IMG/VR virus record: IMGVR_UViG_3300022924_000018
Span: 12,637 to 76,636 of that record
DNA length: 64,000 bases
Direction: 5' to 3' (one strand)
Origin: a virus
Shown here: positions 16,701-44,888 of the stretch, one piece after another
Position numbering within the stretch: position 1 is the stretch's first letter
Layout of the letters: each line of letters begins with the position of its first letter
Notes under the pieces: generated by a model
Database searches by the model: none
What the model saw: only the letters and a program-made list of their open reading frames with translations
Told to the model about the DNA's origin: nothing
Position numbers and translations under genes: made by a program

Positions 16701-17125
16701 TTTCCTAATCTGCTTTTTAAATAACCTAATTCTCTTGATTCTTTGTCGTTGGCATGAATGTAGTCGTGGTGTGGTTTACATACAGCCATCCATTCTCTAC
16801 TGTCCAACATATAGTCTTTTCCTCTGCCCCTGATATGATGGCATTCTGTAGATATGCTTATACAATTTTTAAACATACATAACGGATGGTCTTTCATAAA
16901 TTGTTTCCTTAACACGCTATATGCAGCATCTATTTTCTTTTGCTTATCGCTTTTCTTATTAATCGGAGTTCTCTTCTCTACGGGCTTTATATCGCTTGAC
17001 TTAGTGGTTATTTTGTAGTTGCCTATGGGTGTTGCCTGTTTGAGCGAACACTCTTTACATTGCTTTGGGTTACTTTTCCATAGGTAGCATTCCTTTTGGC
17101 AGGATGAGCATATTTTAAGTTTCAT
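16697..17125 (-). CDS. Zn-finger/HNH-like nuclease (NinG/Ref-like)
   Basis: CxxC pairs; ECHHIRGRG...WMAVCKPHHDYIH. Confidence 0.65.
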   Translation of the reverse strand: MKLKICSSCQKECYLWKSNPKQCKECSLKQATPIGNYKITTKSSDIKPVEKRTPINKKSDKQKKIDAAYSVLRKQFMKDHPLCMFKNCISISTECHHIRGRGKDYMLDSREWMAVCKPHHDYIHANDKESRELGYLKSRLGK

Positions 17126-18197
17126 CTTCTTTTTCGTAATATTTATTCATAACCTTTTCTTTCATCAGTTGCTCTACCCACATTACATCATGTTTAATTG
17201 TATGTCTCCAATGAAATCCCTCTTGCTCTGCATTATCTCTTATTCTTTTCAGAACTTCATATACAGCATTCAATTCGGGTAGGCTGGCTTTTCTTAGTTT
17301 GTCGTATTCTAAAGTCATCATATCCTTTGTTCTCCTTTAATTTTAAACCTATCTGTAAATAAAGTTCCTTGTTCTTTAGGTAATATATAATACTGATAAG
17401 CATTACTACCACATTCGTTTATTCTTATCTCTTGTGTTGCTTCTAATGATTTGAAGTAGTCTGAACTCTTGCGCCATTTAGGTTGTTTCATAATTCAACT
17501 CTTGTTATTGCATGTGCAAGCTTCATTCCATCATCTCCATCAAACTCATGTAGTTCTGGATTAGCCTCTAATACGTAAGGATAATGACCTTTTACCCATC
17601 CTTTAGGCGTTAATAACTCAAACTCTAATCCGTTAATACATTCTTCCATTGTAGGCTCTCTGTATTTTGTTTCATCAAAAAATGCCATATCTATTTATTT
17701 TGTGTTTTCTTAGCCTCGTGTTCAGCCTTAAGTTTGTCGATCATTTCCTGAGTGCCTACAAAATATTGAGGTGTTCCCCAAGCAAGATGGTGTTTAAATT
17801 TCTCCATGATCTCTTCTCTGCTCTGTAAAACGGCTACAAGCAGATTACCTACGTTTAGTGTGCCTCTCCTAGCCATAGTTTCGACGTAGTGATATACCAA
17901 TGGGTCATTAAGATACTTTTTAAAGCCTTGAGGTAAAGAGTCAATTATCAACTTTTTACATTCTTCTATTTTATTGTATTCTTCCATATCTCTTTATATT
18001 TTATCTATGTCTATAAATTTTGGTAAATCATTTTTATTTTCGCTATAAAATAACAAACCTCTTTTAGCTATTTGTGGCTCATATTTAGCATCAGGAAATT
18101 TAAACAGCTTTTCTGTAGCAAATTCTTTAATCAGATTTAAGTAATACTTTCTGTTAGCCCGGTAACTAATTCGTCTATCCCTTGAGTTCTTTTTCAT
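17115..18197 (-). other. Small hypothetical ORFs (17115-17321, 17488-17688, 17691-17987, 17994-18197)
   Basis: Co-oriented, tightly packed. Confidence 0.55.
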
Positions 18198-18490
18198 AAT
18201 CTTATTTGTTTACTCCTCCACTACGCTTTGTTTCTTTACACCATTGGTTATAGAGGGTGTTTAGTTTTTGTTCCATAATGTTTAATTACTTTCCTAAATG
18301 CTTTTCTAATGCGACTATTAACCCAAAAGCAAACTTGTCGTTTTCGTTCCAAAGTTCGCATAATAAATTGTACAAGTCTCTTGCTTCATTATCAGTTGCA
18401 GTTATCAGTCCGTCTGATATAATGCTTAGTATTTCATGTTTCATATTGTTTAAAGGGATTAGAAAGGGTGTTTCATTTATTGTACTGTAC

Positions 18491-19264
18491 TTACTTGCAT
18501 ACTATTGAAATCTTGTTAGGCTTACGTTTACGAACGAGTCCGTCCTTACCCAAGAAGTAGTTTGATGGATAACATAGTCCATAAAAGGCACGAAGATTAA
18601 GTTTGTCCTTAGAAACTATTTCAATGTTCTTCTCTGATTTAATCAATCCAACTGCATTTAACTTCTTTTGTATTTTGTTGCCTGTTGTTATGCTTCTTCT
18701 ATTTACAAGAGTTGCTAATCCTTTATTGCTGATACTATAATAATCTTCGGTTCTTTCGGGTGTTGTGTTTTGCAGATAAGCATTTCTCTTTTGAATTAAT
18801 TTCTTAGCTTCCTTTGGAGAGATAAAATTATCCTCTTGCAGTTTAATGATTTCGGACTTGAGATTGGTTATGTATTGTTGTTGCCTAAAGTTTTTTAATA
18901 ATCGTGTAAATTGAATGTTTAATATTTGTTTGTTCTTGTCATTATTGTATTCTACGGCAATTAGGGGCGACTGTAGTGACTTTCTAAGTTTGGTTGACCC
19001 AACTATGCAAAGATTCCCGTTGTGCATTGTAACGAGTCCTAATTCGGTAAGCTTCTTTATGTGCCTTTGTAGAGTAGAAATTGATAGCCCTGTTTTCTTA
19101 GAAACTTTTCTATATGAGAAGTTGTAGAATTTAGGATTTTTATAAGTCTTTCTTAGGATGATTAGGATTGATAATGAACGTTCCCATTTTTGAGCAATAG
19201 CTTGTTGTATTACCGCTTCGGGTAGCCAAGTGTATTTGTCGTATGTAATGGAAAGTTTGGTCAA
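18491..19264 (-). CDS. Double winged-helix DNA-binding protein, copy 1 (TTG start, 257 aa)
   Basis: FSYRKVSKKTGLSISTLQRHIKKLTELGLV and SNKGLATLVNRRSITTGNKIQKKLNAVGLI; paralog of 25390-26163. Confidence 0.7.
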   Translation of the reverse strand: MTKLSITYDKYTWLPEAVIQQAIAQKWERSLSILIILRKTYKNPKFYNFSYRKVSKKTGLSISTLQRHIKKLTELGLVTMHNGNLCIVGSTKLRKSLQSPLIAVEYNNDKNKQILNIQFTRLLKNFRQQQYITNLKSEIIKLQEDNFISPKEAKKLIQKRNAYLQNTTPERTEDYYSISNKGLATLVNRRSITTGNKIQKKLNAVGLIKSEKNIEIVSKDKLNLRAFYGLCYPSNYFLGKDGLVRKRKPNKISIVCK

Positions 19265-19426
19265 AGCAAAAGGGTTAGTGAAATTTAACTAGTTACCTTG
19301 ATTGACGCTGTGGTAGGGCTTTATCGGTAATCTTTGCTAACTCACTAACCCTTTAGGGTTATATCTTGATGTTCTTTGTATGATTGTCCTGCCTACCACA
19401 GCGGTTTCAACCATGCATCAAAGATA
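19265..19426 (-). ncRNA. Promoter (TATCTTTG, 19419-19426) plus structured 5' leader, copy 1
   Basis: Interleaved inverted repeats 19269-19281/19342-19354 (13 bp) and 19306-19317/19392-19403 (12 bp). Confidence 0.7.
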
Positions 19427-19435
19427 TGAAATATT

Positions 19436-19627
19436 TTAATATTTAGGAACTTCTAAGTAATCAAATAGTTCCTCCCTCAATTCGTCTATTGCGGAGGTCG
19501 TTCCAGAACTTAAACCGTAAGCAGGATGCCCTAAATTCTGTGTCGCTTGTAGTAGCTTTTGTTCTGTTTCCTTTAACACCGTAAGCACCTCTTCTTTTGT
19601 TGCTGTCTCTAGTTTGTCGCTTTTCAT
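19436..19627 (-). CDS. Small protein, paralog of 34645-34842
   Basis: Shared LKETEQKLL.ATQNLGHPAYG.SS and LFDYLE. Confidence 0.7.
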   Translation of the reverse strand: MKSDKLETATKEEVLTVLKETEQKLLQATQNLGHPAYGLSSGTTSAIDELREELFDYLEVPKY

Positions 19628-19665
19628 TTTTGTTGAATTTTATAATTTTCATGTTTTCTTTTAAT

Positions 19666-19697
19666 AAAAGGTGGCGCTTATCCAAGACAACCACCTT
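19666..19697 (-). terminator. Intrinsic terminator
   Basis: aaggtgg/ccacctt stem, U tail on the minus strand. Confidence 0.55.
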
Positions 19698-19754
19698 CCA
19701 AATCTAAATTAACGCATAGCCTATGAAGCTATAATAGGGGCTCTCATCTTCCTA

Positions 19755-19946
19755 TCGTGAATGTGGAGGGACTCAAACCCTCATGGCTACTGTGTTCCTT
19801 CATTACCTTTGCGAACTCTCTAAGAAGCTTTGTTTCGGTACACACTCAATTTCACACACTTTTATGTACTCCATTTAATCGCATGACGGGATAGTGTGAA
19901 ATATAGGCCTTATTGTCTTTACCGTCTCTCTTTCCGGCACACATTC
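19755..19946 (-). ncRNA. tRNA-like RNA with a greatly expanded anticodon region
   Basis: Acceptor GAATGTG/CACATTC, D-arm CCG..CGG, T-arm GAGGG-TTTGAGT-CCCTC, about 135 nt between D- and T-arms. Confidence 0.7.
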
Positions 19947-19950
19947 ATAT

Positions 19951-20409
19951 TTACTTTTTTAAATTAATCGCATATTCCAAAATCAAAAGTGCATCTGCAT
20001 TTGCAAGTGTAACCTTAATATGAGGATATAACTGTTGTGCTTTTGCTTTAAGTTTATTTTTCCATTCGGTTGTTGATAGTTTAGACTTTGTGCCTATAAG
20101 CATTGTTTTCTGCCATGCTTGGGGAGAGGTTGTTGTTGTTTTAATTTCATTGGCAATCAAAGCCATTTCGATATGTCCGTAGCCTTGACCAAAGTTAAAC
20201 ATTGAAGAACCTCCCATTTTCGGCATACCTCCAACCTTTTCAAGCATACATTCAACATCGTAATCGTTTTGTCTTAAGGATTTAAAGAGTTCAAATAAGT
20301 CTTTTGGCGTGTCTGGCATTTTATATGAAATGATACTTCCATCAAATGTTCTAACTACTATTGCACCATTTGCTCCTGGGTCTATTGCTATTAATGTTTT
20401 ATTTTCCAT
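19951..20409 (-). CDS. RuvC-like Holliday junction resolvase
   Basis: IAIDPGANG, MLEKV, MFNFGQGYG, PQAWQK, ADALLI. Confidence 0.85.
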   Translation of the reverse strand: MENKTLIAIDPGANGAIVVRTFDGSIISYKMPDTPKDLFELFKSLRQNDYDVECMLEKVGGMPKMGGSSMFNFGQGYGHIEMALIANEIKTTTTSPQAWQKTMLIGTKSKLSTTEWKNKLKAKAQQLYPHIKVTLANADALLILEYAINLKK

Positions 20410-22481
20410 CTGCTGCGGGTTTAATCTCTCCATTATCAAGAGTGAGGGTTAGTTCTTTGTGTTCTGTTAAAATATGTCTAGCCCATTTAGCACCATCTAT
20501 AAATCCTTGTCTATAAAAAACTGCTATTTCATTATCCTTATAGTTAAACTGTGCTAATTCATCAGCATATTCAAGTATGTCTTTTTGCGTTATTGTTTCC
20601 ATATCATTTTCGTTTTTGTAATCTGCCGTCAAGTTCAATCTTAAACCCTGTACTTTTTAGCTTCTCCGCTAATTTAAGGCGTTCTGCGACACTATCTAAT
20701 TGAGGTTGTTCTTTGTCTACCGTGTAAGATATTTTGTTGTGACAGCTTATTTCATTGCCTTTAAAAGTCTGTTTCATAATTTAAAAATCTTTATCTCTTG
20801 GGTCAATTTCTTTTGCCCCCTTTATACACCAAATAAAAATACCTAAAGCTATAACACATATTCCAAATATGGTAAAAGCAGTTTCACATGTAGACATATC
20901 AAAATCTTTTAAAGGGGTTTAACAACACTTCAATTGTACTATAGAAAGGTAAAGGCATCTTATTAACAACTAACATTGGTGGTTTAGGTTGACTAATGTA
21001 ATGCTGATTAAGTGCTAATTGTGTTTCTCTAAATGTTGATTGCTTTTTCATAATGATTGGTTTAATTTGGTTAGGTAAAATTAGATTGCCAATCGCTGAC
21101 TGTACAGCGTTCCCGTCTTTTATAAATTCAATTGAACTTAAAGGTTATATCGCTTGGTTTATGGCAATCTAATGAGGTTAGTTGATATTCCAACTTGGTC
21201 TTTCATTCTCTAATTCAGCTTCCCTTCTATCACGCCTTTCTTGTTCGCTATAATCGGCTAGAACATCTGCTCTATAATCTTCTTCGTTATCCTGTTCAAT
21301 AGCTATCTGTTCAAGGGTAGGGTTGTCTATGTGCTTTTTCATAGTTTTCATGCTTTTGCAAAATCTTCCATTATTACTCCCTTATCTGTTATCGTACCTA
21401 ATTCTACACAAGTAGAATATTTTTCACTCCAAGCCTTGCAATTGTTTCTTGTTTCAGCGCCTCCATTTGATTGGGCAATTGATCTTGCCTCTTTTTCATT
21501 TTCAGCATTAATAACAAATCCAAAAGCTTTGTCAAACCAAGGTTCCCAAGGATTTACATCAGATTTTTCTAATTTATCTTTAGGTCTTAAAATAAATGTT
21601 TTCATATCTACTTATATTTAGCTTTTTCTTCTTTAGACAGTTTATCAAATTCAGGCTTTAAACTATTCATGTGTGCCTGTATCATAGGTAATACTAATCC
21701 GTTAAACCCTGAAAACCTAATAGCATACTTAAACAATTCATTCTTCTCTAGTCCTTTAAGGTCTATGGTTGTTTTTGATGTCTTTCTTTCTTTAATATCT
21801 TTCATGTGTTTATAGTGCTAGTGGTATTCTGAATGTGTGGTAAGGATATTCTTTGTCGAAGATGCTTTTCTTCTCAAACTTCTCATAAGAGAATTGTAGG
21901 TTCTTATTGCCTCCAACAATAGGCATGGTATCGTTAATTGTTAGGTACTTAAATTTTATAAATGGCGATCTTTTATCTTTACCTATATAAAGTGTACTTT
22001 CATTGGCATACCAAACTATTCTATATACTCTATCGTAAACTTTAAACTCTATCTCCCGACTAAATTCTTCATCGCCTAAAGAATTATATTGCCCCATTAT
22101 TTGAGCGCTTTCGAGGACTAATTGTATTTCTTCTAATGTATGTGGCTTCATGTGTTATAAGTTATGTGTTGCTAATAAATCAAATAGTTGCTCAAAGAAG
22201 TCATTGTCACTAGCGGTCTTAATAAAATCATTGTCACAAAACTCATCATCTCCTAAAATCCACCCGTTTCTATCTTCCTTTAATTTATAAGCTTTAAGTA
22301 GGTGTACTCTGTGAGCGTAAATACGATGTTCCATGCCATTATAAAATGGTTCGGATGCTAATGGTTCATCTCCAAAGTGAGCAGGATTAGATTTAAGTTC
22401 TTCTTCTTTATATTTCTGTAGTAAGTCATAAGACTCTTTTGTTACCATAATATATACGGCATCATCTAAATACTTTCCCAT
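20399..22481 (-). other. Small hypothetical ORFs (20399-20602, 21348-21605, 21608-21805, 21810-22151, 22155-22481 and shorter ones)
   Basis: Co-oriented, tightly packed. Confidence 0.55.
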
Positions 22482-22484
22482 AAC

Positions 22485-22988
22485 TTAATTTATCTGCAAA
22501 TTTTTATTCTCTTTAATTCTTGCACCTTTTACTTTCTCTCCTGCTTCAATAGCATTCTTAACAGCTTTCTTATCTATTTTGAATGTAGCAGGTACAGGAA
22601 TTTTAAACTTCTTAGGGATAAGCTTTTCATCCTCTATAATCGTTTCTTTTGAAGTTCTGAATGATAGCTTAATGTTCTGCACTTCGATTGATTTAACTTC
22701 AAACATTATCATGGCATTCTTTACTCTCTCTTCTAACTTTTCCTTGGCTGTTATTCGTGCCTTTTTAAGCGCTGTAAGGCGTTCAATTTCTTTATCCAAT
22801 AAATCTATCTCTCCATCATACTTTTTACAAACATAGCCGTATTTAGCGCTTTTAATCTCAAAGTTTTCTTTGTTAAGTTCTAAGGCTTTTTCTAATTCTG
22901 GTGTTACCTCGCCTCCTGCTTCAACTAATTGTTGAGCAATGGATAAATATTCTTCTTGAAGGCTGTAAAGATTTAATTCTGTACTCAT
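22485..22988 (-). CDS. Siphovirus Gp157 family protein
   Basis: LYSL...EIERLTALKK...LSFRTS...IEDEKLIPKKF...IDKKAVKNAIEAGEKVKGARI; near ERF. Confidence 0.85.
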   Translation of the reverse strand: MSTELNLYSLQEEYLSIAQQLVEAGGEVTPELEKALELNKENFEIKSAKYGYVCKKYDGEIDLLDKEIERLTALKKARITAKEKLEERVKNAMIMFEVKSIEVQNIKLSFRTSKETIIEDEKLIPKKFKIPVPATFKIDKKAVKNAIEAGEKVKGARIKENKNLQIN

Positions 22989-23157
22989 GCTTCCTGTTTT
23001 TCTAAATGTTTAAACCTTTTTTCAAACAATCCCTTCAATAACGAATTGCTCTGATATGAAAAGTGGAGGATACTTATGTACCGCTCCAATTCCTTTTTGC
23101 TTTTTATGTTCCCTACTTCCTTTGTTATCCTTAGTAGGGCTTCGCTGAATGTTTCCA

Positions 23158-23421
23158 TCATAAAGCATAATTAAACTTTTTCAACAGACTTCTATTGGAT
23201 TTTAATACCTTCTTAACCTCTTCCCATTTCTCAAATGTTTCAGGGTCTAAGCTTTCGAGGCACATTTCATTAACAAAATCTAAGGCATCTAATTCACCTC
23301 TATCATTCGTTAAATACGCTTGAAAATCTTTTTCTAATTGTTCTTGATTTGTAGCTTCTAAACTTGTGTTAGCATCGCTTTTAGAGTTAAAAAACTCGTT
23401 TAATAAATTTGTTCTTTCCAT
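23158..23421 (-). CDS. Hypothetical protein
   Basis: 87 aa ORF. Confidence 0.5.
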   Translation of the reverse strand: MERTNLLNEFFNSKSDANTSLEATNQEQLEKDFQAYLTNDRGELDALDFVNEMCLESLDPETFEKWEEVKKVLKSNRSLLKKFNYAL

Positions 23422-23575
23422 GATTTTAATTGTTTTTTAAAAATTGTTTATATAAATATTCGTATGGCGCATCTTTTTCCCCAAATGAAGCGAATGCCAT
23501 ATTATTACTTTTGTCTATAAGAATTAGTCTTTTCTTGCCTTTACCGTAATCCTTTAATAATATTTCTAATTTCAT

Positions 23576-24157
23576 CTATGCAGTTTTGCTAAGTTCTTCC
23601 TCTAATTCTTTCTCTGTTGCTTTAGATACTGACCATTTCTTTCTAACATCAGCAATCTTATACCCTTCTCTCATTGCTTTTACAACATTGGCGAAACTAG
23701 GAGCATCAGATTTATTTAACCAAGGCAAAGCAGGTTTCTCTTCTTTCTTATCTGTGCCACCTGTACTGTTATTACCACTTGCATTGTTACCATCATCATC
23801 TTCATCTATGTTAAGCGATAATACAGCCCCTACAGCGTATCTTCTCTGATAAGTGATACATGAGCCTATTCCTTGAGGATCGTTCTTTGTAGGGTTCATT
23901 TCATACGTATCCATTAAGTATTCACCACTCTCTGCATGAATAAGGATTGTAGTTAAACCATGATTACCTGTAGGATGCTGACTAATGACTAATCCTGCAT
24001 CTAATAAGGGTTGATGTATCTCTGAAAGAATATCTGGTAAGGCAGCGTATTTTGATTTAAAGAAAGGGTTGTTGCTTCCCTTGTTTACCGTTCCTACATT
24101 AGTGTGAAACTTTACCAATGCTAATGCAATGTTTTTTATTGATTCTGATTTTTCCAT
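23576..24157 (-). CDS. erf: ERF-family single-strand annealing protein
   Basis: NPFFKSKYAAL, HAESGEY, PQGIGSCITYQRRYA, DEDDDGN. Confidence 0.9.
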   Translation of the reverse strand: MEKSESIKNIALALVKFHTNVGTVNKGSNNPFFKSKYAALPDILSEIHQPLLDAGLVISQHPTGNHGLTTILIHAESGEYLMDTYEMNPTKNDPQGIGSCITYQRRYAVGAVLSLNIDEDDDGNNASGNNSTGGTDKKEEKPALPWLNKSDAPSFANVVKAMREGYKIADVRKKWSVSKATEKELEEELSKTA

Positions 24158-24159
24158 TG

Positions 24160-25320
24160 TTATTTCTCTGCGTTAAGTTGTTTAATTAATGCATCTGCAT
24201 GTTGGACTGCTAGTTTTGATATTTGATCAGGTGAATATGCTTTACTATTTGTTTGTGTATAGCATCCTTCTGCATTAGCTAATATTCCTTGCATAGCTTT
24301 AGTAGCTATATAAGCTCTAATTGTTAAGCCTCCCTCTGTGTAGTTAACCATACCTAAGCTGTCACCATCCATTCTGTCTTCGTATTCTTGCCTGTATTTC
24401 AGAAGTGGAGTTAATGATTCATTTGGTTCTGTTTTCATATTAATCAAGTCTTAAATCCCATCTACGTTCAAGAATTGTCTCATGGGATAGTTTATGTTCT
24501 TTATCTTTTGTTTTAACCTCTTTAGGAGAGGTGTAAGCTTCTATTTCTTTATCTGACATAAATAGCCCTGTGTGCGAGTTAAAAGGTCTTCCATTAGGCT
24601 TAATTACGATGTATAGAGGTAGATGCTTATAGGGTTGGTGTTTCTTCTTTGCCATGATGCTTTAAATCTATAGTCCACATTAAGAAATTGGTATAGTCTG
24701 CCATCATTACTGTAATGTTATGCAGAAGTGCTACATAAGCTTTGTATTTGTAACCTGATGGATATTTAACTTTATCCATTTCAATGCCCATAGCTAAACT
24801 ACTGTATCCATCAGAGCCTAACCAGACTCTAAAAGTGTTTTCTTTATCTATTTCATCGGGCATTATAGAAGTTATACCAAAAAGTAGATTCCTAATGTCC
24901 TCTACAATATCGTTTTCTGATTTTACTGTTGTTAATGTCATCACTTCACATAATTAATCTTGTCATCTAATGCTTTCCATTCTAACTCTACTATGAAATC
25001 TTTTAAATCCCATAGTTCATTTCTCCTAGCTATAGACTCTACTCTCTCAAAACGCTTTCTATCTATTCCTAAATCAATGCTTTCCTTTTCTAGGGTGTCT
25101 ATTCTTGCCTTTATTTGGGCTTTAATTGCGTCTATCATGGCTGTAATGATTTAAGGTCTTCTATTATCTCTTTAAAAATGGGTATAATCATAGTTAATGA
25201 CGCTTTAGATTGAATGGCAAATTGATTTAACTTACCTTGAAGTAACCTTTCTGACTGTTCGGATGTGATTAAGTATCCTTCATACTTTAAAAGTAAAGTT
25301 TTAATTTCCTGATGTTCCAT
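24160..25320 (-). other. Small hypothetical ORFs (24160-24447 with the common phage GLTIRAYIATKAMQG motif, 24440-24655, 24627-24944, 24941-25138, 25135-25320)
   Basis: Overlapping co-oriented ORFs. Confidence 0.55.
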
Positions 25321-25389
25321 ATTTGTTATTTTGTTTATGTTTTGTTGTTTAAACCCATTTCAATAATTTCACTCTACTTCTTATTCCTT

Positions 25390-26163
25390 TTACCGGACTG
25401 TGATTTTATTAGGTAGGATTTGGAACACAATGCCGTGTTTAGAGAGTTGATAGTTGTTGCTAATGTACTTCTCCCTAAATGCTCTATAGTTTGGCAAGTA
25501 GTCAGCCATTACTATGTTACGTTCCGATTTTATAAGTTTTAATCTGTTAAGGTCTTTTTGAATTTTAACCCCTGTTCGTGCGCTGCGGTTACAGAGCTTT
25601 CCAAATGATTTGTTTGATAGCATTAAATAATCTAGTTTACCAATTTCAGCGTTTTTGTATTGTGGCATATCGTTCATTTTCTTTCTTGTAAGCTTTATGT
25701 CGCTAATTGAAAGTTTGCAATCTGCCTTAGGAATATCAAGGATGTTTTGGCGTAACTTATTTGCTTTATGCTGTAAGTGTAATTTTCTACGTATTAGTGT
25801 CTGTCTTAAATATGTTAGTTGATCTTGCTTGTTATTGTAGATTTTTATAGGAACTAATGTTGTTTTGTATTGTGCTTTTAAAGCGTGGGTTGATTTAAGG
25901 TAAAGGTTGCCATTTCTTATAGAAGCTAAATCAAGTGAAATAAGCTTGTGTAAGGCACGATGAAGTGTAGCGGGTGAACAACCTATCTTTTTGGATAAAT
26001 CAGCGTATGTGAAGTTATAATGTACTGGTTTGCGCTTTAATGAAGCTAATCTTATAAAATAACCCAATTGATTTTCAAAACCTTGTTCAAAGGCAATTTG
26101 TATCAGTCCTAGTGGAAGATACTTATAGCTGAATGGTTTTAATTGTTTGGGTTCGTACTTCAA
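25390..26163 (-). CDS. Double winged-helix DNA-binding protein, copy 2 (TTG start, 257 aa)
   Basis: YNFTYADLSKKIGCSPATLHRALHKLISLDL..RNGNL and LSNKSFGKLCNRSARTGVKIQKDLNRLKLIKSE; PNKI terminus shared with copy 1. Confidence 0.7.
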   Translation of the reverse strand: MKYEPKQLKPFSYKYLPLGLIQIAFEQGFENQLGYFIRLASLKRKPVHYNFTYADLSKKIGCSPATLHRALHKLISLDLASIRNGNLYLKSTHALKAQYKTTLVPIKIYNNKQDQLTYLRQTLIRRKLHLQHKANKLRQNILDIPKADCKLSISDIKLTRKKMNDMPQYKNAEIGKLDYLMLSNKSFGKLCNRSARTGVKIQKDLNRLKLIKSERNIVMADYLPNYRAFREKYISNNYQLSKHGIVFQILPNKITVR

Positions 26164-26318
26164 TGATAAAAGGGGTTAAACATTTCACGTTGATACTAAA
26201 CTCTGCCAAGCGCCCTGTATCTTATGATTATGTCAACCCCTTTAAGGATATATTTTGGTAATGTATAATGCTTATGACGTGGGCGCTTGGCGTTGCCTTA
26301 TATCATGCACCAAAGATA
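26164..26318 (-). ncRNA. Promoter (TATCTTTG, 26311-26318) plus structured 5' leader, copy 2
   Basis: Interleaved inverted repeats 26169-26183/26230-26243 and 26205-26215/26281-26291 (11 bp). Confidence 0.7.
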
Positions 26319-26328
26319 TGAATATTTT

Positions 26329-27856
26329 TTATTTATGCTCTTTAATAAGCTTTTTTATATCAACTTCTTTAAACTCTTCTTCAAAATCGCTACCGTCTTT
26401 ATACTCTAAAGTAAACAGTTTGTTGTGTTTAAATGCTTTAGGCAGAATTTTTAAATCAATTCCATCCCACTCAATATCTTCGTAATGACGCATAAAGAAA
26501 ACTGATTTACCTTTTATGTCCTCAGCAATTGCTTTCTCCATCATAACATCAAATACAACAACGCTACCTGTATAACTTCCGTAACCACATAAAGGGACTA
26601 AAGAACTGTTTGCGTAAATCTCATCAGCTGATTTAACGGCATCCCAAGCCTGATAAGGTTCGTGCCATGCGTGACCTACTACATCATCGAATATGTCACC
26701 TTCTGTATTTATTCCAGAAGTTTCTAAAATCCTTCTTAATTGCCTTTTTGAAGTTCTTACCTCATCATCCTGAATGTAATCACTATCTATAAATATTCTT
26801 TTCATAATTTCTTTTTTTGCCATAAGCAGAACAAAGCTATTCCGGTTATGAGAGTGAGTAGTATAGGCATTATTCTCCTAGTGCTTTATTGATTGCTGCC
26901 TTAAATTTATTGTAGCTATCAGTTGATTTTGCTTTTCCTGATTCTACTTTATCCACAAAGTCTATTGCAGCTTGTAAAAGGTCTTGTGAAGCGCAAATTA
27001 ATGTAGCATTAGCTTGTGCAGCAGTAATACCAACCTCAATAAAATCTAACACATTTCTTCCCTCAGCATAAGGCGAGTTTAGTATTTTAAGAAATCCACT
27101 TCTTGATACGGCATGCCATTCACCCTTTGTCCCTTTAAATTCTTTCATTAGTCTAATATTTTTCTAATCCATTTAACCAAAAAAGGCACTAAATACAAAG
27201 CGCCTCCTATTAATAATCCTATAGTGTATTTGTTCATTTCTCATTATAATAGTTTAATCCAACCTCTATTAATCAATTCTTCAACGCTTAATCCCATGTA
27301 AGGAATTGCATAGCCTTTTGATTTTAAGTAATCAAATACATGGCATTGAAATTCATAGTTTTCCTGAAAATGGTCTATTAGGTTATAACGATTTACATTA
27401 AATTCAAATTTTTCACGCAAATAATTATAGTCATGGATAGATAGTGATGAAATAGGTTTGAGTTGTAAAAATGTGTCTTCTAGAGAGTAAACACCATATT
27501 TTTGAGAAAATCCACTTTTATATTCTATTGAAGGTGTATATTTTATAAATATAGAACCTTTACTTACACCTATAATAACGCCAAAATGAACGTATCTCTT
27601 TGATTTTACAATAGCACCTAAATATTGTCCAAAAAACTTTTCTTTGTTTTCGAGTGTGTTTTCCATATCATTAAATCTGAAATACTAATCTCTGTATATA
27701 CCCCTTATGCATTAACAAGAAGTTTAACGGTATTTTGCTGAGGTTAGCGAGACTTTCGAAGTCTGCATCTACATTTCCACCTTTATGTATTGAAGTGGCT
27801 AATTGAGGATGTTTATTGAACACTTGTTTGAGTGCTATGATTTTTTCAGTTTCCAT
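26329..27856 (-). other. Hypothetical ORFs (26329-26823, 26870-27148, 27244-27666, 27671-27856)
   Basis: Co-oriented ORFs. Confidence 0.55.
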
Positions 27857-27858
27857 GA

Positions 27859-28290
27859 TTACAATTCTAAAAATTCCTTAATTGATTGAATAATTTTCTC
27901 TTTGTTCTTAGCGTATAGGTTAAAGTTCCTTTTGCTAGGGTGAATGGTATAAAGCCATTGAGTATTGCATCCCCATGTTTTGTCTTTAGTTGCTATATAA
28001 TCTCTGGCAACATTGCCTAATACCCAAACTTTATTGGCTGATTGCACTTTTATTTCCAGTGTATCATCCCAATGCTTATCCATTTGTTCCTGAGTAGGTT
28101 TTAAATGCCCTCCGTTAGCATCAAATCCTGTGAATGAACCAAACACAGCATCAAAGTCAAAAATGCCTTGTGCAGATTCTTTTGTAATGCCTACTTCTGC
28201 TAGCCATTGATACAGCATTGTGGTATCGTATGGGGTTTCTTGCTTTACAAATGGCAACGCTTGGCCAATTATTAATATTCTATTTTTCAT
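27859..28290 (-). CDS. Uracil-DNA glycosylase superfamily-like protein
   Basis: Motif A-like ILIIGQALP and motif B-like IHPSKRN. Confidence 0.7.
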   Translation of the reverse strand: MKNRILIIGQALPFVKQETPYDTTMLYQWLAEVGITKESAQGIFDFDAVFGSFTGFDANGGHLKPTQEQMDKHWDDTLEIKVQSANKVWVLGNVARDYIATKDKTWGCNTQWLYTIHPSKRNFNLYAKNKEKIIQSIKEFLEL

Positions 28291-34644: not shown

Positions 34645-34842
34645 TCATGGTGTTTTGGTATTTATTTCTAAGTAATCAAATAAATTCTCTCTCAAATTGT
34701 CAATAGATATAGTAGTCGACGAACTTATTCCGTAAGCGGGATGACCTAGATTTTGTGTTGCCTCTAATAATTTTTGTTCAGTTTCTTTTAAAACTTTAAG
34801 CACTTGCTGTTTTGTTGCTTTTTTTAGATTATCGCTTTTCAT
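34645..34842 (-). CDS. Small protein, paralog of 19436-19627
   Basis: High identity by eye. Confidence 0.7.
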   Translation of the reverse strand: MKSDNLKKATKQQVLKVLKETEQKLLEATQNLGHPAYGISSSTTISIDNLRENLFDYLEINTKTP

Positions 34843-35299
34843 TTTTAATTATTTTTAATATTATTTGATATGAACCTTTTAAGTCTTTGGAGTTAATAAG
34901 TTCATTTAGCTCTAAAATTAGATTATTTTGTTTTTTGCATAGAATTAATCTATCATATACTTTTTTTACCCAATTAATATCTTCATCAAACTTTAACCAT
35001 TCTATATAATCAAAAGGATTATTTATAAGACCTTTTAGAGAATCGGCACAATCATACCATCCCAAATCTGTCTTCGCCATTCCCATAAATTCAGCTATAC
35101 GTTTATTTTCTTTGCTATTATACATTTTAATGAGTTTTAAGACGTTTAAATATTAAATTAATACAATTAGTAGCCTATACTATTTAAGTTGCTTAGAGTG
35201 CCTTTAGAATAAGCCACACACAATGGCAATACAACAAATACAATAAGGAATAATACCGAGGCTATAATAACCTTTTGATTGTAATTAAGAGTTTTCATA

Positions 35300-43880: not shown

Positions 43881-44888
43881 ATGAACAATATACTAGACCA
43901 TACAGAAAAAGTAATGAACCATTACCATAGTGGTAAATTAAAAGGCGAACCAACAGGATTTAAATGCCTTGACGAATTAATAACGTTCAAACCTAAATAT
44001 ACAACCTATATACAAGGATTTCCTAAATGTGGTAAAACAGAAATGCATTTGGAGATTCTCTTTAATCTAACCCAAAAATCACATGCTAAACACGCTATAA
44101 TGAGTCCTGAAATTGGAGGAGTAGAAGATGTGATTGCAGAGTTAGTTTCGAAATACCTAAGAAGACCATTCTTTAAATCATCTTATAATGCCCCACAAGA
44201 GCGTGAAATATATCAAGCTATGAATCAACTATCTCAATACTTTTTCGTGCTTGATAACGACTCTAAAGACTATAATATAGATACTTTTTTTGAGGACTGT
44301 ATTAAAATAGAGAAAGACAACAAGGTAAAATTGTTCAGCACTTCTATAGACCCTTGGAATGATTTAGATGAGGACTTACAAAAATTTGGTGGAAGGGAAG
44401 ATAAATATTTAGCTCACGCATTAAGAAAAGTTCGTTCAACAGCTAAAAATAATAATTGGCATAATTTCATTGTTACACATAGCAAAGAGTCTACTGCTGT
44501 AGATTATAAGCATTATCAAGGAGGAAAAGTTACTTGTACGCCAATGCCGACATTACAAACATTTGCAGGAGGACAAGTTTGGAGTAGGAGAGCGTTTAAT
44601 GTTATAGGAATGTGGAGGCCAGAAGAAGGTGCTGTAAACCCAAAAACACACCAACCTTTTGAAGATAATGCTGCGGTTATAAAAATTCTAAAAGCAAAAC
44701 CAAAAGGAGTTGGAAAGTTGGGTAGTGCTTATTTATATTTTGATTGGAGAAAAAACAGATACTTCGAGAAGTATAACGATAAAAACTTATATGCTTACGA
44801 ACACATAAAAGAAGATGAAGAGTTGGCGAAAATAGAAAAAGAAAAGGGAGTTATTGATACATCACAAACACAACAAGCATTTTTCTAA
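43881..44888 (+). CDS. DnaB/T7 gp4-like (SF4) replicative helicase
   Basis: PTGFKCLD, Walker A GFPKCGKT, SPE, IDPWN, IVTH. Confidence 0.85.
   Translation: MNNILDHTEKVMNHYHSGKLKGEPTGFKCLDELITFKPKYTTYIQGFPKCGKTEMHLEILFNLTQKSHAKHAIMSPEIGGVEDVIAELVSKYLRRPFFKSSYNAPQEREIYQAMNQLSQYFFVLDNDSKDYNIDTFFEDCIKIEKDNKVKLFSTSIDPWNDLDEDLQKFGGREDKYLAHALRKVRSTAKNNNWHNFIVTHSKESTAVDYKHYQGGKVTCTPMPTLQTFAGGQVWSRRAFNVIGMWRPEEGAVNPKTHQPFEDNAAVIKILKAKPKGVGKLGSAYLYFDWRKNRYFEKYNDKNLYAYEHIKEDEELAKIEKEKGVIDTSQTQQAFF

Follow-up and report, generated by a model that had tools for sequence, protein, structure and literature searches.

The 64,000-nt stretch of viral DNA analysed here (the window; bases 12637-76636 of a 76.6-kb IMG/VR virus record from leaf-litter metagenomes) carries a conserved, folded leader RNA, located between a predicted promoter and the TTG start codon of a gene for a tandem winged-helix protein. 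The helices of this leader recur at fixed spacing in other phages, show compensatory base changes, and have no counterpart in Rfam. Promoter and leader together (26164-26318, minus strand) probably constitute a cis-acting control element, which would dose the winged-helix gene by attenuation and/or by occlusion of the start site and which features a pseudoknot between the 5' end of the RNA and the loop of a hairpin. From the sequence, we infer transcription from a -7 box as well as termination or occlusion further downstream.

Two winged-helix cassettes and their protein family

The gene, here called cassette 2, lies within a long minus-strand run of small early genes, whose other members encode an Erf-like annealing protein, a Mu Gam-like protein, a Holliday-junction resolvase, SSB, uracil-DNA glycosylase, HNH endonucleases, and NinB. 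The large terminase has distant relatives (~25% identity) in phages of Flavobacterium, Cellulophaga, and Maribacter, which fits the Bacteroidota-type -7 box upstream of cassette 2. In the probable source run, a Logan contig of 76,524 nt contains the record in circularly permuted form and bridges its two ends, which suggests a circularly permuted or terminally redundant genome, though IMG/VR lists it as linear.

The cassette 2 gene has a sole paralogue in the genome, cassette 1:

25390-26163, minus strand: cassette 2 gene, tandem winged-helix protein of 257 aa, TTG start at 26161-26163
18491-19264, minus strand: cassette 1 gene, 257 aa, TTG start, 36% identical to the cassette 2 protein

The first-pass annotation had described both as TTG-started genes of this length that directly follow the stop of an upstream gene and share a near-identical promoter context, and this description holds in each respect. 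The ORF upstream of cassette 2 stops at 26329-26331 (minus strand), the distance from upstream stop to -7 box is 9-10 nt in both cassettes, and the 15-nt promoter word TTCATATCTTTGRTG occurs without mismatch at just these two places in the 64-kb window. A -33 TTTG element upstream of the -7 box was found in neither cassette. All features listed by the annotation are present, none displaced by more than one base. Just upstream of cassette 1, the small ORF 19436-19627 (minus strand) has a paralogue at 34645-34842 (minus strand), given a 197-nt direct repeat (19451-19647 and 34666-34862, 75% identical overall); one Logan contig carries 19506-19631 at two places of itself, without differing letters.

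AlphaFold2, supplied with a 42-sequence alignment, predicts two winged-helix domains joined by a long helix (pLDDT 92), and the C-terminal domain modelled alone again yields a winged helix, with generic fold matches (Z <=5.7). Other fold matches were generic as well (Z <=7.2) and comprised 4pta, a staphylococcal RepA_N protein (6.9), the N-terminal domain of DnaD (5.9-6.2), and regulators (5.5-7.2); Foldseek, VIA, and ESM Atlas likewise returned only generic winged-helix or HTH matches. Against PF13730 (HTH_36; gathering threshold 25 bits), the cassette 2 protein scores below threshold (19.5 bits) and the cassette 1 paralogue passes (29.1 bits), the latter also matching PHROG replication-initiation families (E ~1e-6). 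Judging from these matches and models, it is plausible that the cassette 2 protein is a phage replication initiator. Neither a polymerase nor a primase was found in the early region, where the sole hint of a helicase is a weak DnaB_C-like (RecA-type ATPase) match in a 335-aa ORF at 43881-44888 on the plus strand (24.7 bits, under the Pfam threshold).

DNA and protein searches of GenBank phages gave no match to the family. An exhaustive profile search nonetheless collected 488 representative clusters (50% identity), 42 of them at E <1e-30 and nearly all from Logan or ENA assemblies. The closest relatives are P0003/P0154 (81% identical to cassette 2), alongside P0006 and P0011. Related loci were sought in two ways. 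A search of viral and metagenome contigs returned only contig G001, and genome contigs returned none; a degenerate nucleotide pattern representing the conserved C-terminal motif led to eight IMG/VR contigs with family loci, of which six are phages of 70-75 kb with one gene copy each. Each of the eight further phages searched has the family gene just once, and gene order around it was not conserved among the phages. Nine upstream regions, from the eight pattern-found contigs and G001, were compared. Together with our two cassettes, G001, G005, G006, and G007 provide six leaders of the same architecture (type I), which represent only five lineages. The N-terminus M-K-Y of the cassette 2 protein recurs in G005 and G006, in support of the TTG as its start codon. 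A motif scan of leader DNA had picked up two further candidates besides G001, L008 and L009, which turned out to be unrelated terminator hairpins, and a scan allowing spacing variants gave one false match, L026. Contigs of sequencing runs revealed no sequence variation inside the leaders. In a second leaf-litter run, a 147-nt contig matches just the promoter-box region 26303-26338 (6 differences in 36 nt) and is unlike our sequence on both sides; it may represent the same promoter type in another phage.

Architecture and conservation of the leader RNA

The elements of the two leaders, all on the minus strand, are listed here, those of cassette 2 in their order from 5' to 3':

26164-26318, minus strand: promoter and leader of cassette 2
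26311-26318, minus strand: -7 box TATCTTTG (Bacteroidota consensus TAnnTTTG)
26281-26291, minus strand: helix B 5' arm GCCAAGCGCCC, near the 5' end of the predicted transcript
26244-26247, minus strand: mini-hairpin M 5' arm CCUU, whose partner AAGG lies inside the helix A 5' arm
26231-26243, minus strand: helix A 5' arm AAAGGGGUUGACA, within the span closed by helix B
26217-26221, minus strand: helix C 5' arm GAUAC, inner continuation of helix A
26205-26215, minus strand: helix B 3' arm GGGCGCUUGGC, in the apical loop of the A+C hairpin
26192-26196, minus strand: helix C 3' arm GUAUC
26169-26182, minus strand: helix A 3' arm UGUUUAACCCCUUU, ending in CCCCUUU
26164-26168, minus strand: spacer UAUCA between helix A and the start codon
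19265-19426, minus strand: leader of cassette 1, for comparison, with its -7 box at 19419-19426
19392-19403 and 19306-19317, minus strand: cassette 1 helix B
19341-19354 and 19269-19282, minus strand: cassette 1 helix A
19326-19330 and 19293-19297, minus strand: cassette 1 helix C, arms UUACC and GGUAA

The order is thus B5', M5', A5' (containing M3'), C5', B3', C3', A3', the U run, a few nucleotides, and TTG, with ~145-150 nt of predicted leader between promoter and start codon in cassette 2. Helix B comprises 11 bp with full complementarity, exactly where it had been annotated (26205-26215/26281-26291). Helix A, annotated at 26230-26243/26169-26183 with a terminal U run, is confirmed with ends that differ by at most one base; it consists of 11 continuous pairs, one of them G-U, after which a 1-base bulge and two more pairs can be read by eye. 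Helix C had not been listed. Jointly, A and C form one long, irregular hairpin that resembles a terminator in its G/C-rich base and U tract and whose apical loop of ~25-30 nt holds the 3' arm of helix B. Two disjoint stems of matching length arose in 2 of 1000 dinucleotide shuffles of the 149-nt cassette 2 leader, and in none of 1000 for the five other type-I leaders.

The claim that a rival mini-hairpin is kept in cassette 2 stands as far as its presence is concerned, and RNAalifold applied to the six-leader alignment returns helix B together with M; M is weak, however, with 3-4 bp in cassette 2 as opposed to 4-6 bp in cassette 1, G001, and G006, and both M and C are weaker here than in any other type-I leader. 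The uORF of cassette 2 indeed reads ATG-ATA-TAA, and the view that no leader peptide is conserved is borne out by the six type-I leaders, which share no uORF (G006 lacks one altogether). A helix between the 5' end and the start codon, seen in single-sequence folds, was dropped, as it is not kept in G001.

All six type-I leaders precede a TTG start codon and their spacing is narrowly confined: 36-40 nt from B5' to A5', 15-23 nt from A5' to B3', 19-23 nt from B3' to A3', and 3-6 nt from A3' to TTG. The -7 box lies 13-19 nt before B5', with the exact consensus in four leaders and near matches in the other two. The A3' arm ends in CCC(C)UUU(U) and is followed by the U-rich spacer in 6/6 cases, a terminator hallmark also present in type II and G009.

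Covariation within these leaders supports a selected RNA fold. In the four leaders that MAFFT aligns, the pseudoknot pairs form in 95.1% of cells and 14 pairs are changed on both sides, compared to 0-4 in controls slid by 1-3 columns and with 0/500 shuffles reaching the observed values. Since MAFFT misaligns cassette 2 and G007, the six leaders were aligned by a covariance model (R1), which was built from the four MAFFT-aligned leaders with helix B only and thus without cassette 2 and G007. R1 recovers both at full length and at the expected place (cassette 2: 29.5 bits, E 4e-4; G007: 33.9 bits, E 4e-5), and a search of the 76.6-kb genome gave nothing further of significance. In the resulting alignment, helices A and B pair in 95.5% of cells, 17 of 26 pairs are changed on both sides (2-5 in slid controls), and the covariation score amounts to 0.713 (<=0.133 when slid), values attained by 0/500 shuffles. 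Given that helix A is absent from R1, its support does not stem from model fitting. Related sequences can outperform shuffles without any structure, yet the slid controls argue otherwise here. The first-pass annotation had proposed that structure retained despite sequence turnover indicates a selected fold, and had named an alignment no better than shuffled sequence as its refutation: the real leaders exceed the shuffles, and the same helices and spacing with compensatory changes in other phages, as well as the recovery of cassette 2 by R1, support the proposal.

The helices differ in how they vary. Helix B is composed of 75 Watson-Crick pairs and one G-U among 76 pairs over the leaders. In helix A, the proximal AAAGGG/CCCUUU is conserved and the distal half covaries. 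Helix C is formed in all six leaders between the A5'-B3' and B3'-A3' stretches with differing letters (e.g. GAAUACC/GGUAUUC in G005); its summed pairing energy is -52.6 compared to a shuffle mean of -21.1, a sum over six leaders that 0/2000 shuffles match, with 0-68/2000 for individual leaders and 41/2000 for cassette 2.

The inverted repeats could also act in DNA, as a replication origin or as an initiator or repressor region with extruded hairpins or a bound palindrome. We judge this very improbable. A tandem winged-helix protein with weak replication-initiator matches, an early region that yielded no polymerase or primase and a single weak helicase-like match, and the almost pure Watson-Crick pairing of helix B would all suit such a role. 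However, no iterons were found, the arms are interleaved and 48-86 nt apart, unlike operators, and a DNA role leaves the U tract after helix A unexplained; the fixed distances to the -7 box and the start codon, together with this U tract, fit an RNA better than a DNA site. In addition, helix A contains seven G-U pairs on the sense strand over eight leaders, which would be A-C mismatches on the other strand, and its summed duplex energy over these leaders is -143.6 kcal/mol for sense and -124.3 kcal/mol for antisense. Because the MFE of the whole leader is not better for sense than for antisense, it is the G-U pairs of helix A that carry the strand assignment, and the comparison amounts to moderate evidence in favour of a sense-strand RNA.

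Candidate modes of action and known leader systems

In all six leaders, the arms follow the order of an H-type pseudoknot (S1a-S2a-S1b-S2b, here B5'-A5'-B3'-A3') and both helices covary. The nested folds B+M and A+C are 1.1-5.3 kcal/mol apart in each of them, in models that are restricted to nested pairs and hence silent on the coexistence of A and B. Such near-equal states are expected of a switch, or of a pseudoknot with both helices formed, and the loops are long enough for A and B to form together.

For the cis-acting leader that we favour, the A+C state would be OFF: transcription would stop at the U tract and/or the ribosome-binding region would be hidden, helix A ending shortly before TTG, inside the region that a 30S subunit must occupy. 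The B+M state would be ON, with A3' and the start codon free. Here, M would occupy that part of A5' which nucleates the base of helix A, and pairing of B5' with B3' in the apical loop would create either a pseudoknot or, along with M, an alternative fold that frees A3'. The weak TTG start could add to this control, so that a DNA-binding protein would be made in low and timed doses, and the balance might be shifted by folding kinetics alone, by a protein, or by another RNA.

The I-complex plasmids offer a precedent: they need a pseudoknot to translate the initiator, and they employ a leader peptide and the antisense RNA I (PMC8125031). As with their rep leaders, a 5' element pairs over a long range with a site near the start, in a structured leader that precedes a dose-limited, initiator-type gene. 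Pairing of helix B might accordingly be an activating pseudoknot as in IncB, IncI-alpha, and IncL/M, blocked by an antisense RNA that has escaped detection, and the initiator-like protein with its weak PF13730 and PHROG matches would agree with this logic. We nevertheless consider it improbable: the translated leader peptide of the plasmids has no conserved equivalent in the phage leaders, and a search for an antisense promoter yielded no exact TAnnTTTG at a conserved position, only one-mismatch words that are also expected by chance. Moreover, the 5' element pairs with the apical loop of a terminator-like hairpin rather than with the ribosome-binding region, and the host group initiates translation without reliance on Shine-Dalgarno pairing, as is well established for Bacteroidota.

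Leaders that act as antisense-driven attenuators or sequester the ribosome-binding site also control the rep genes of pT181, pIP501, and pSK41 (PMC5703833). Common features are a hairpin with a U tract, or a sequestered start site, just ahead of the rep start codon, as well as a competing segment further upstream, here M, which is able to engage one hairpin arm first. In contrast to these plasmids, the phage leader yielded no countertranscript promoter, has a local hairpin of 3-6 bp as its competitor, and contains an extra pairing of 11-15 bp between the 5' end and the hairpin loop.

A further precedent comes from phages themselves. The immunity RNAs CI of phage P4 and c4 of P1/P7 are cut from a leader, and their loops pair with sites in the same operon. 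The RNA described here is likewise a phage leader with a basal stem and an internal segment that can pair directly ahead of the downstream gene on the same transcript, and the specificity of both differs between related phages. It could therefore be imagined as a stand-alone small RNA acting in trans, ending at the U tract after helix A or processed at B as in P4 CI and c4, or reporting genome copy number or a co-infecting relative by leader-leader pairing. A terminator-like hairpin straight after the promoter would be in keeping with this, and so would the divergence of helix B between the two cassettes, which have 51% of unpaired leader positions in common and 61% of those in helix A, as opposed to just 4 of 24 in helix B. 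Cross-pairing of B between cassettes is weak (-2.9 and -4.5 kcal/mol, compared to -22.4 and -23.5 kcal/mol for the cognate arms), so the modules would be orthogonal. This divergence is compatible with selection against cross-talk of co-resident modules, as a single case. Helix B is not generally hypervariable, however; G005 and G007 share 23/24 positions and a core is common to five of the six leaders. Guide-like targets of B, as suggested from the first reading, were not detected elsewhere in the window for the arms of either cassette with up to two mismatches, and A5' has no target in the window closer than its own partner. The leader also differs from CI and c4 in its fold, shows no evidence of processing, has no match to the c4 family in Rfam, and its pairing is most simply intramolecular. 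Given that it always adjoins the start codon of one gene family, a cis role is simpler, and we regard a small RNA in trans as unlikely. In the cassette 1 leader, 13 nt between A5' and B3' (19325-19337) are 92% complementary to 19007-19019, ~305 nt downstream inside its own coding region, which may be a chance match.

A more speculative idea, to which we assign little credence, is that B serves as a self-complementary "address", by which terminated leaders titrate nascent leaders in trans through sense-sense pairing and without the need for an antisense promoter. If true, this address would endow each initiator module with a copy-number or co-infection sensor of its own specificity, and the two cassettes would represent orthogonal replicon-control modules in which cross-talk is prevented by the wholly replaced B.

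Autoregulatory leaders of ribosomal-protein operons and of T4 gene 32 are pseudoknotted and bound by the RNA-binding protein that they encode. With these, the phage leader shares a pseudoknot-type structure that includes or adjoins a non-ATG start and sets the dose, whereas its own product is predicted to be a winged helix of the DNA-binding type.

The leader belongs to none of the compared plasmid rep, P4 CI, or c4 systems. A cmscan of window positions 17000-28000 on both strands against Rfam 15, which includes the C4 antisense RNA and known Bacteroidota leaders, gave 0 matches at E <=1, nor did we find the leader in the literature searched; the class is well supported and uncatalogued. To our knowledge, a terminator-like hairpin that adjoins a TTG start and has its loop tied to the 5' end of the RNA has not been described. 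Bacteroidota differ from model bacteria in their promoters and translation initiation, and very little is known of RNA-based gene control in their phages. This leader class is tied to a widespread phage protein family with no assigned role, and it makes the dosing of an early DNA-binding protein, possibly a replication initiator, open to experiment in such phages. It also provides natural and apparently orthogonal RNA parts for Bacteroidota genetics.

Distant members of the leader family

Beyond type I, the topology survives without sequence similarity in G003/G004, G002, and G009. G003 and G004 possess a different helix A (ACCCGUAUC.../...GAUACGGGU, then UUU) and a helix B that covaries between the two, and their 5' helix extends into A3'. 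G002 combines an 11-bp helix B with an A-like pairing that takes in the TTG. The start of G009 is immediately preceded by a compact 9-bp hairpin (8-nt loop) with a TTGTTTTTT tail. The scan classifies this hairpin as terminator-like, and 7 nt of its loop are complementary to the loop of a hairpin further upstream. The theme common to the family is a terminator-like hairpin that adjoins the start codon and has its loop paired with a 5' element. Regarding the compactness of the hairpin loop (3-8 nt in terminators), G009 conforms and cassette 2, with helix A arms ~48 nt apart, does not; a terminator scan of 25300-26400 made no call.

Two of the more distant loci display additional features. In G008, an ORF located ~300-100 nt upstream of the family gene (L025) ends in a long GCT-rich triplet run with interspersed GAT/TAT, the short leader may form a compact pair of interleaved stems (5+5 bp), and the family-gene match contains one TGA. 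In G009, ~150-250 nt upstream of the family gene (L024), a tRNA-like sequence with the T-loop word GTTCGAATC is located on the opposite strand, just upstream of the promoter.
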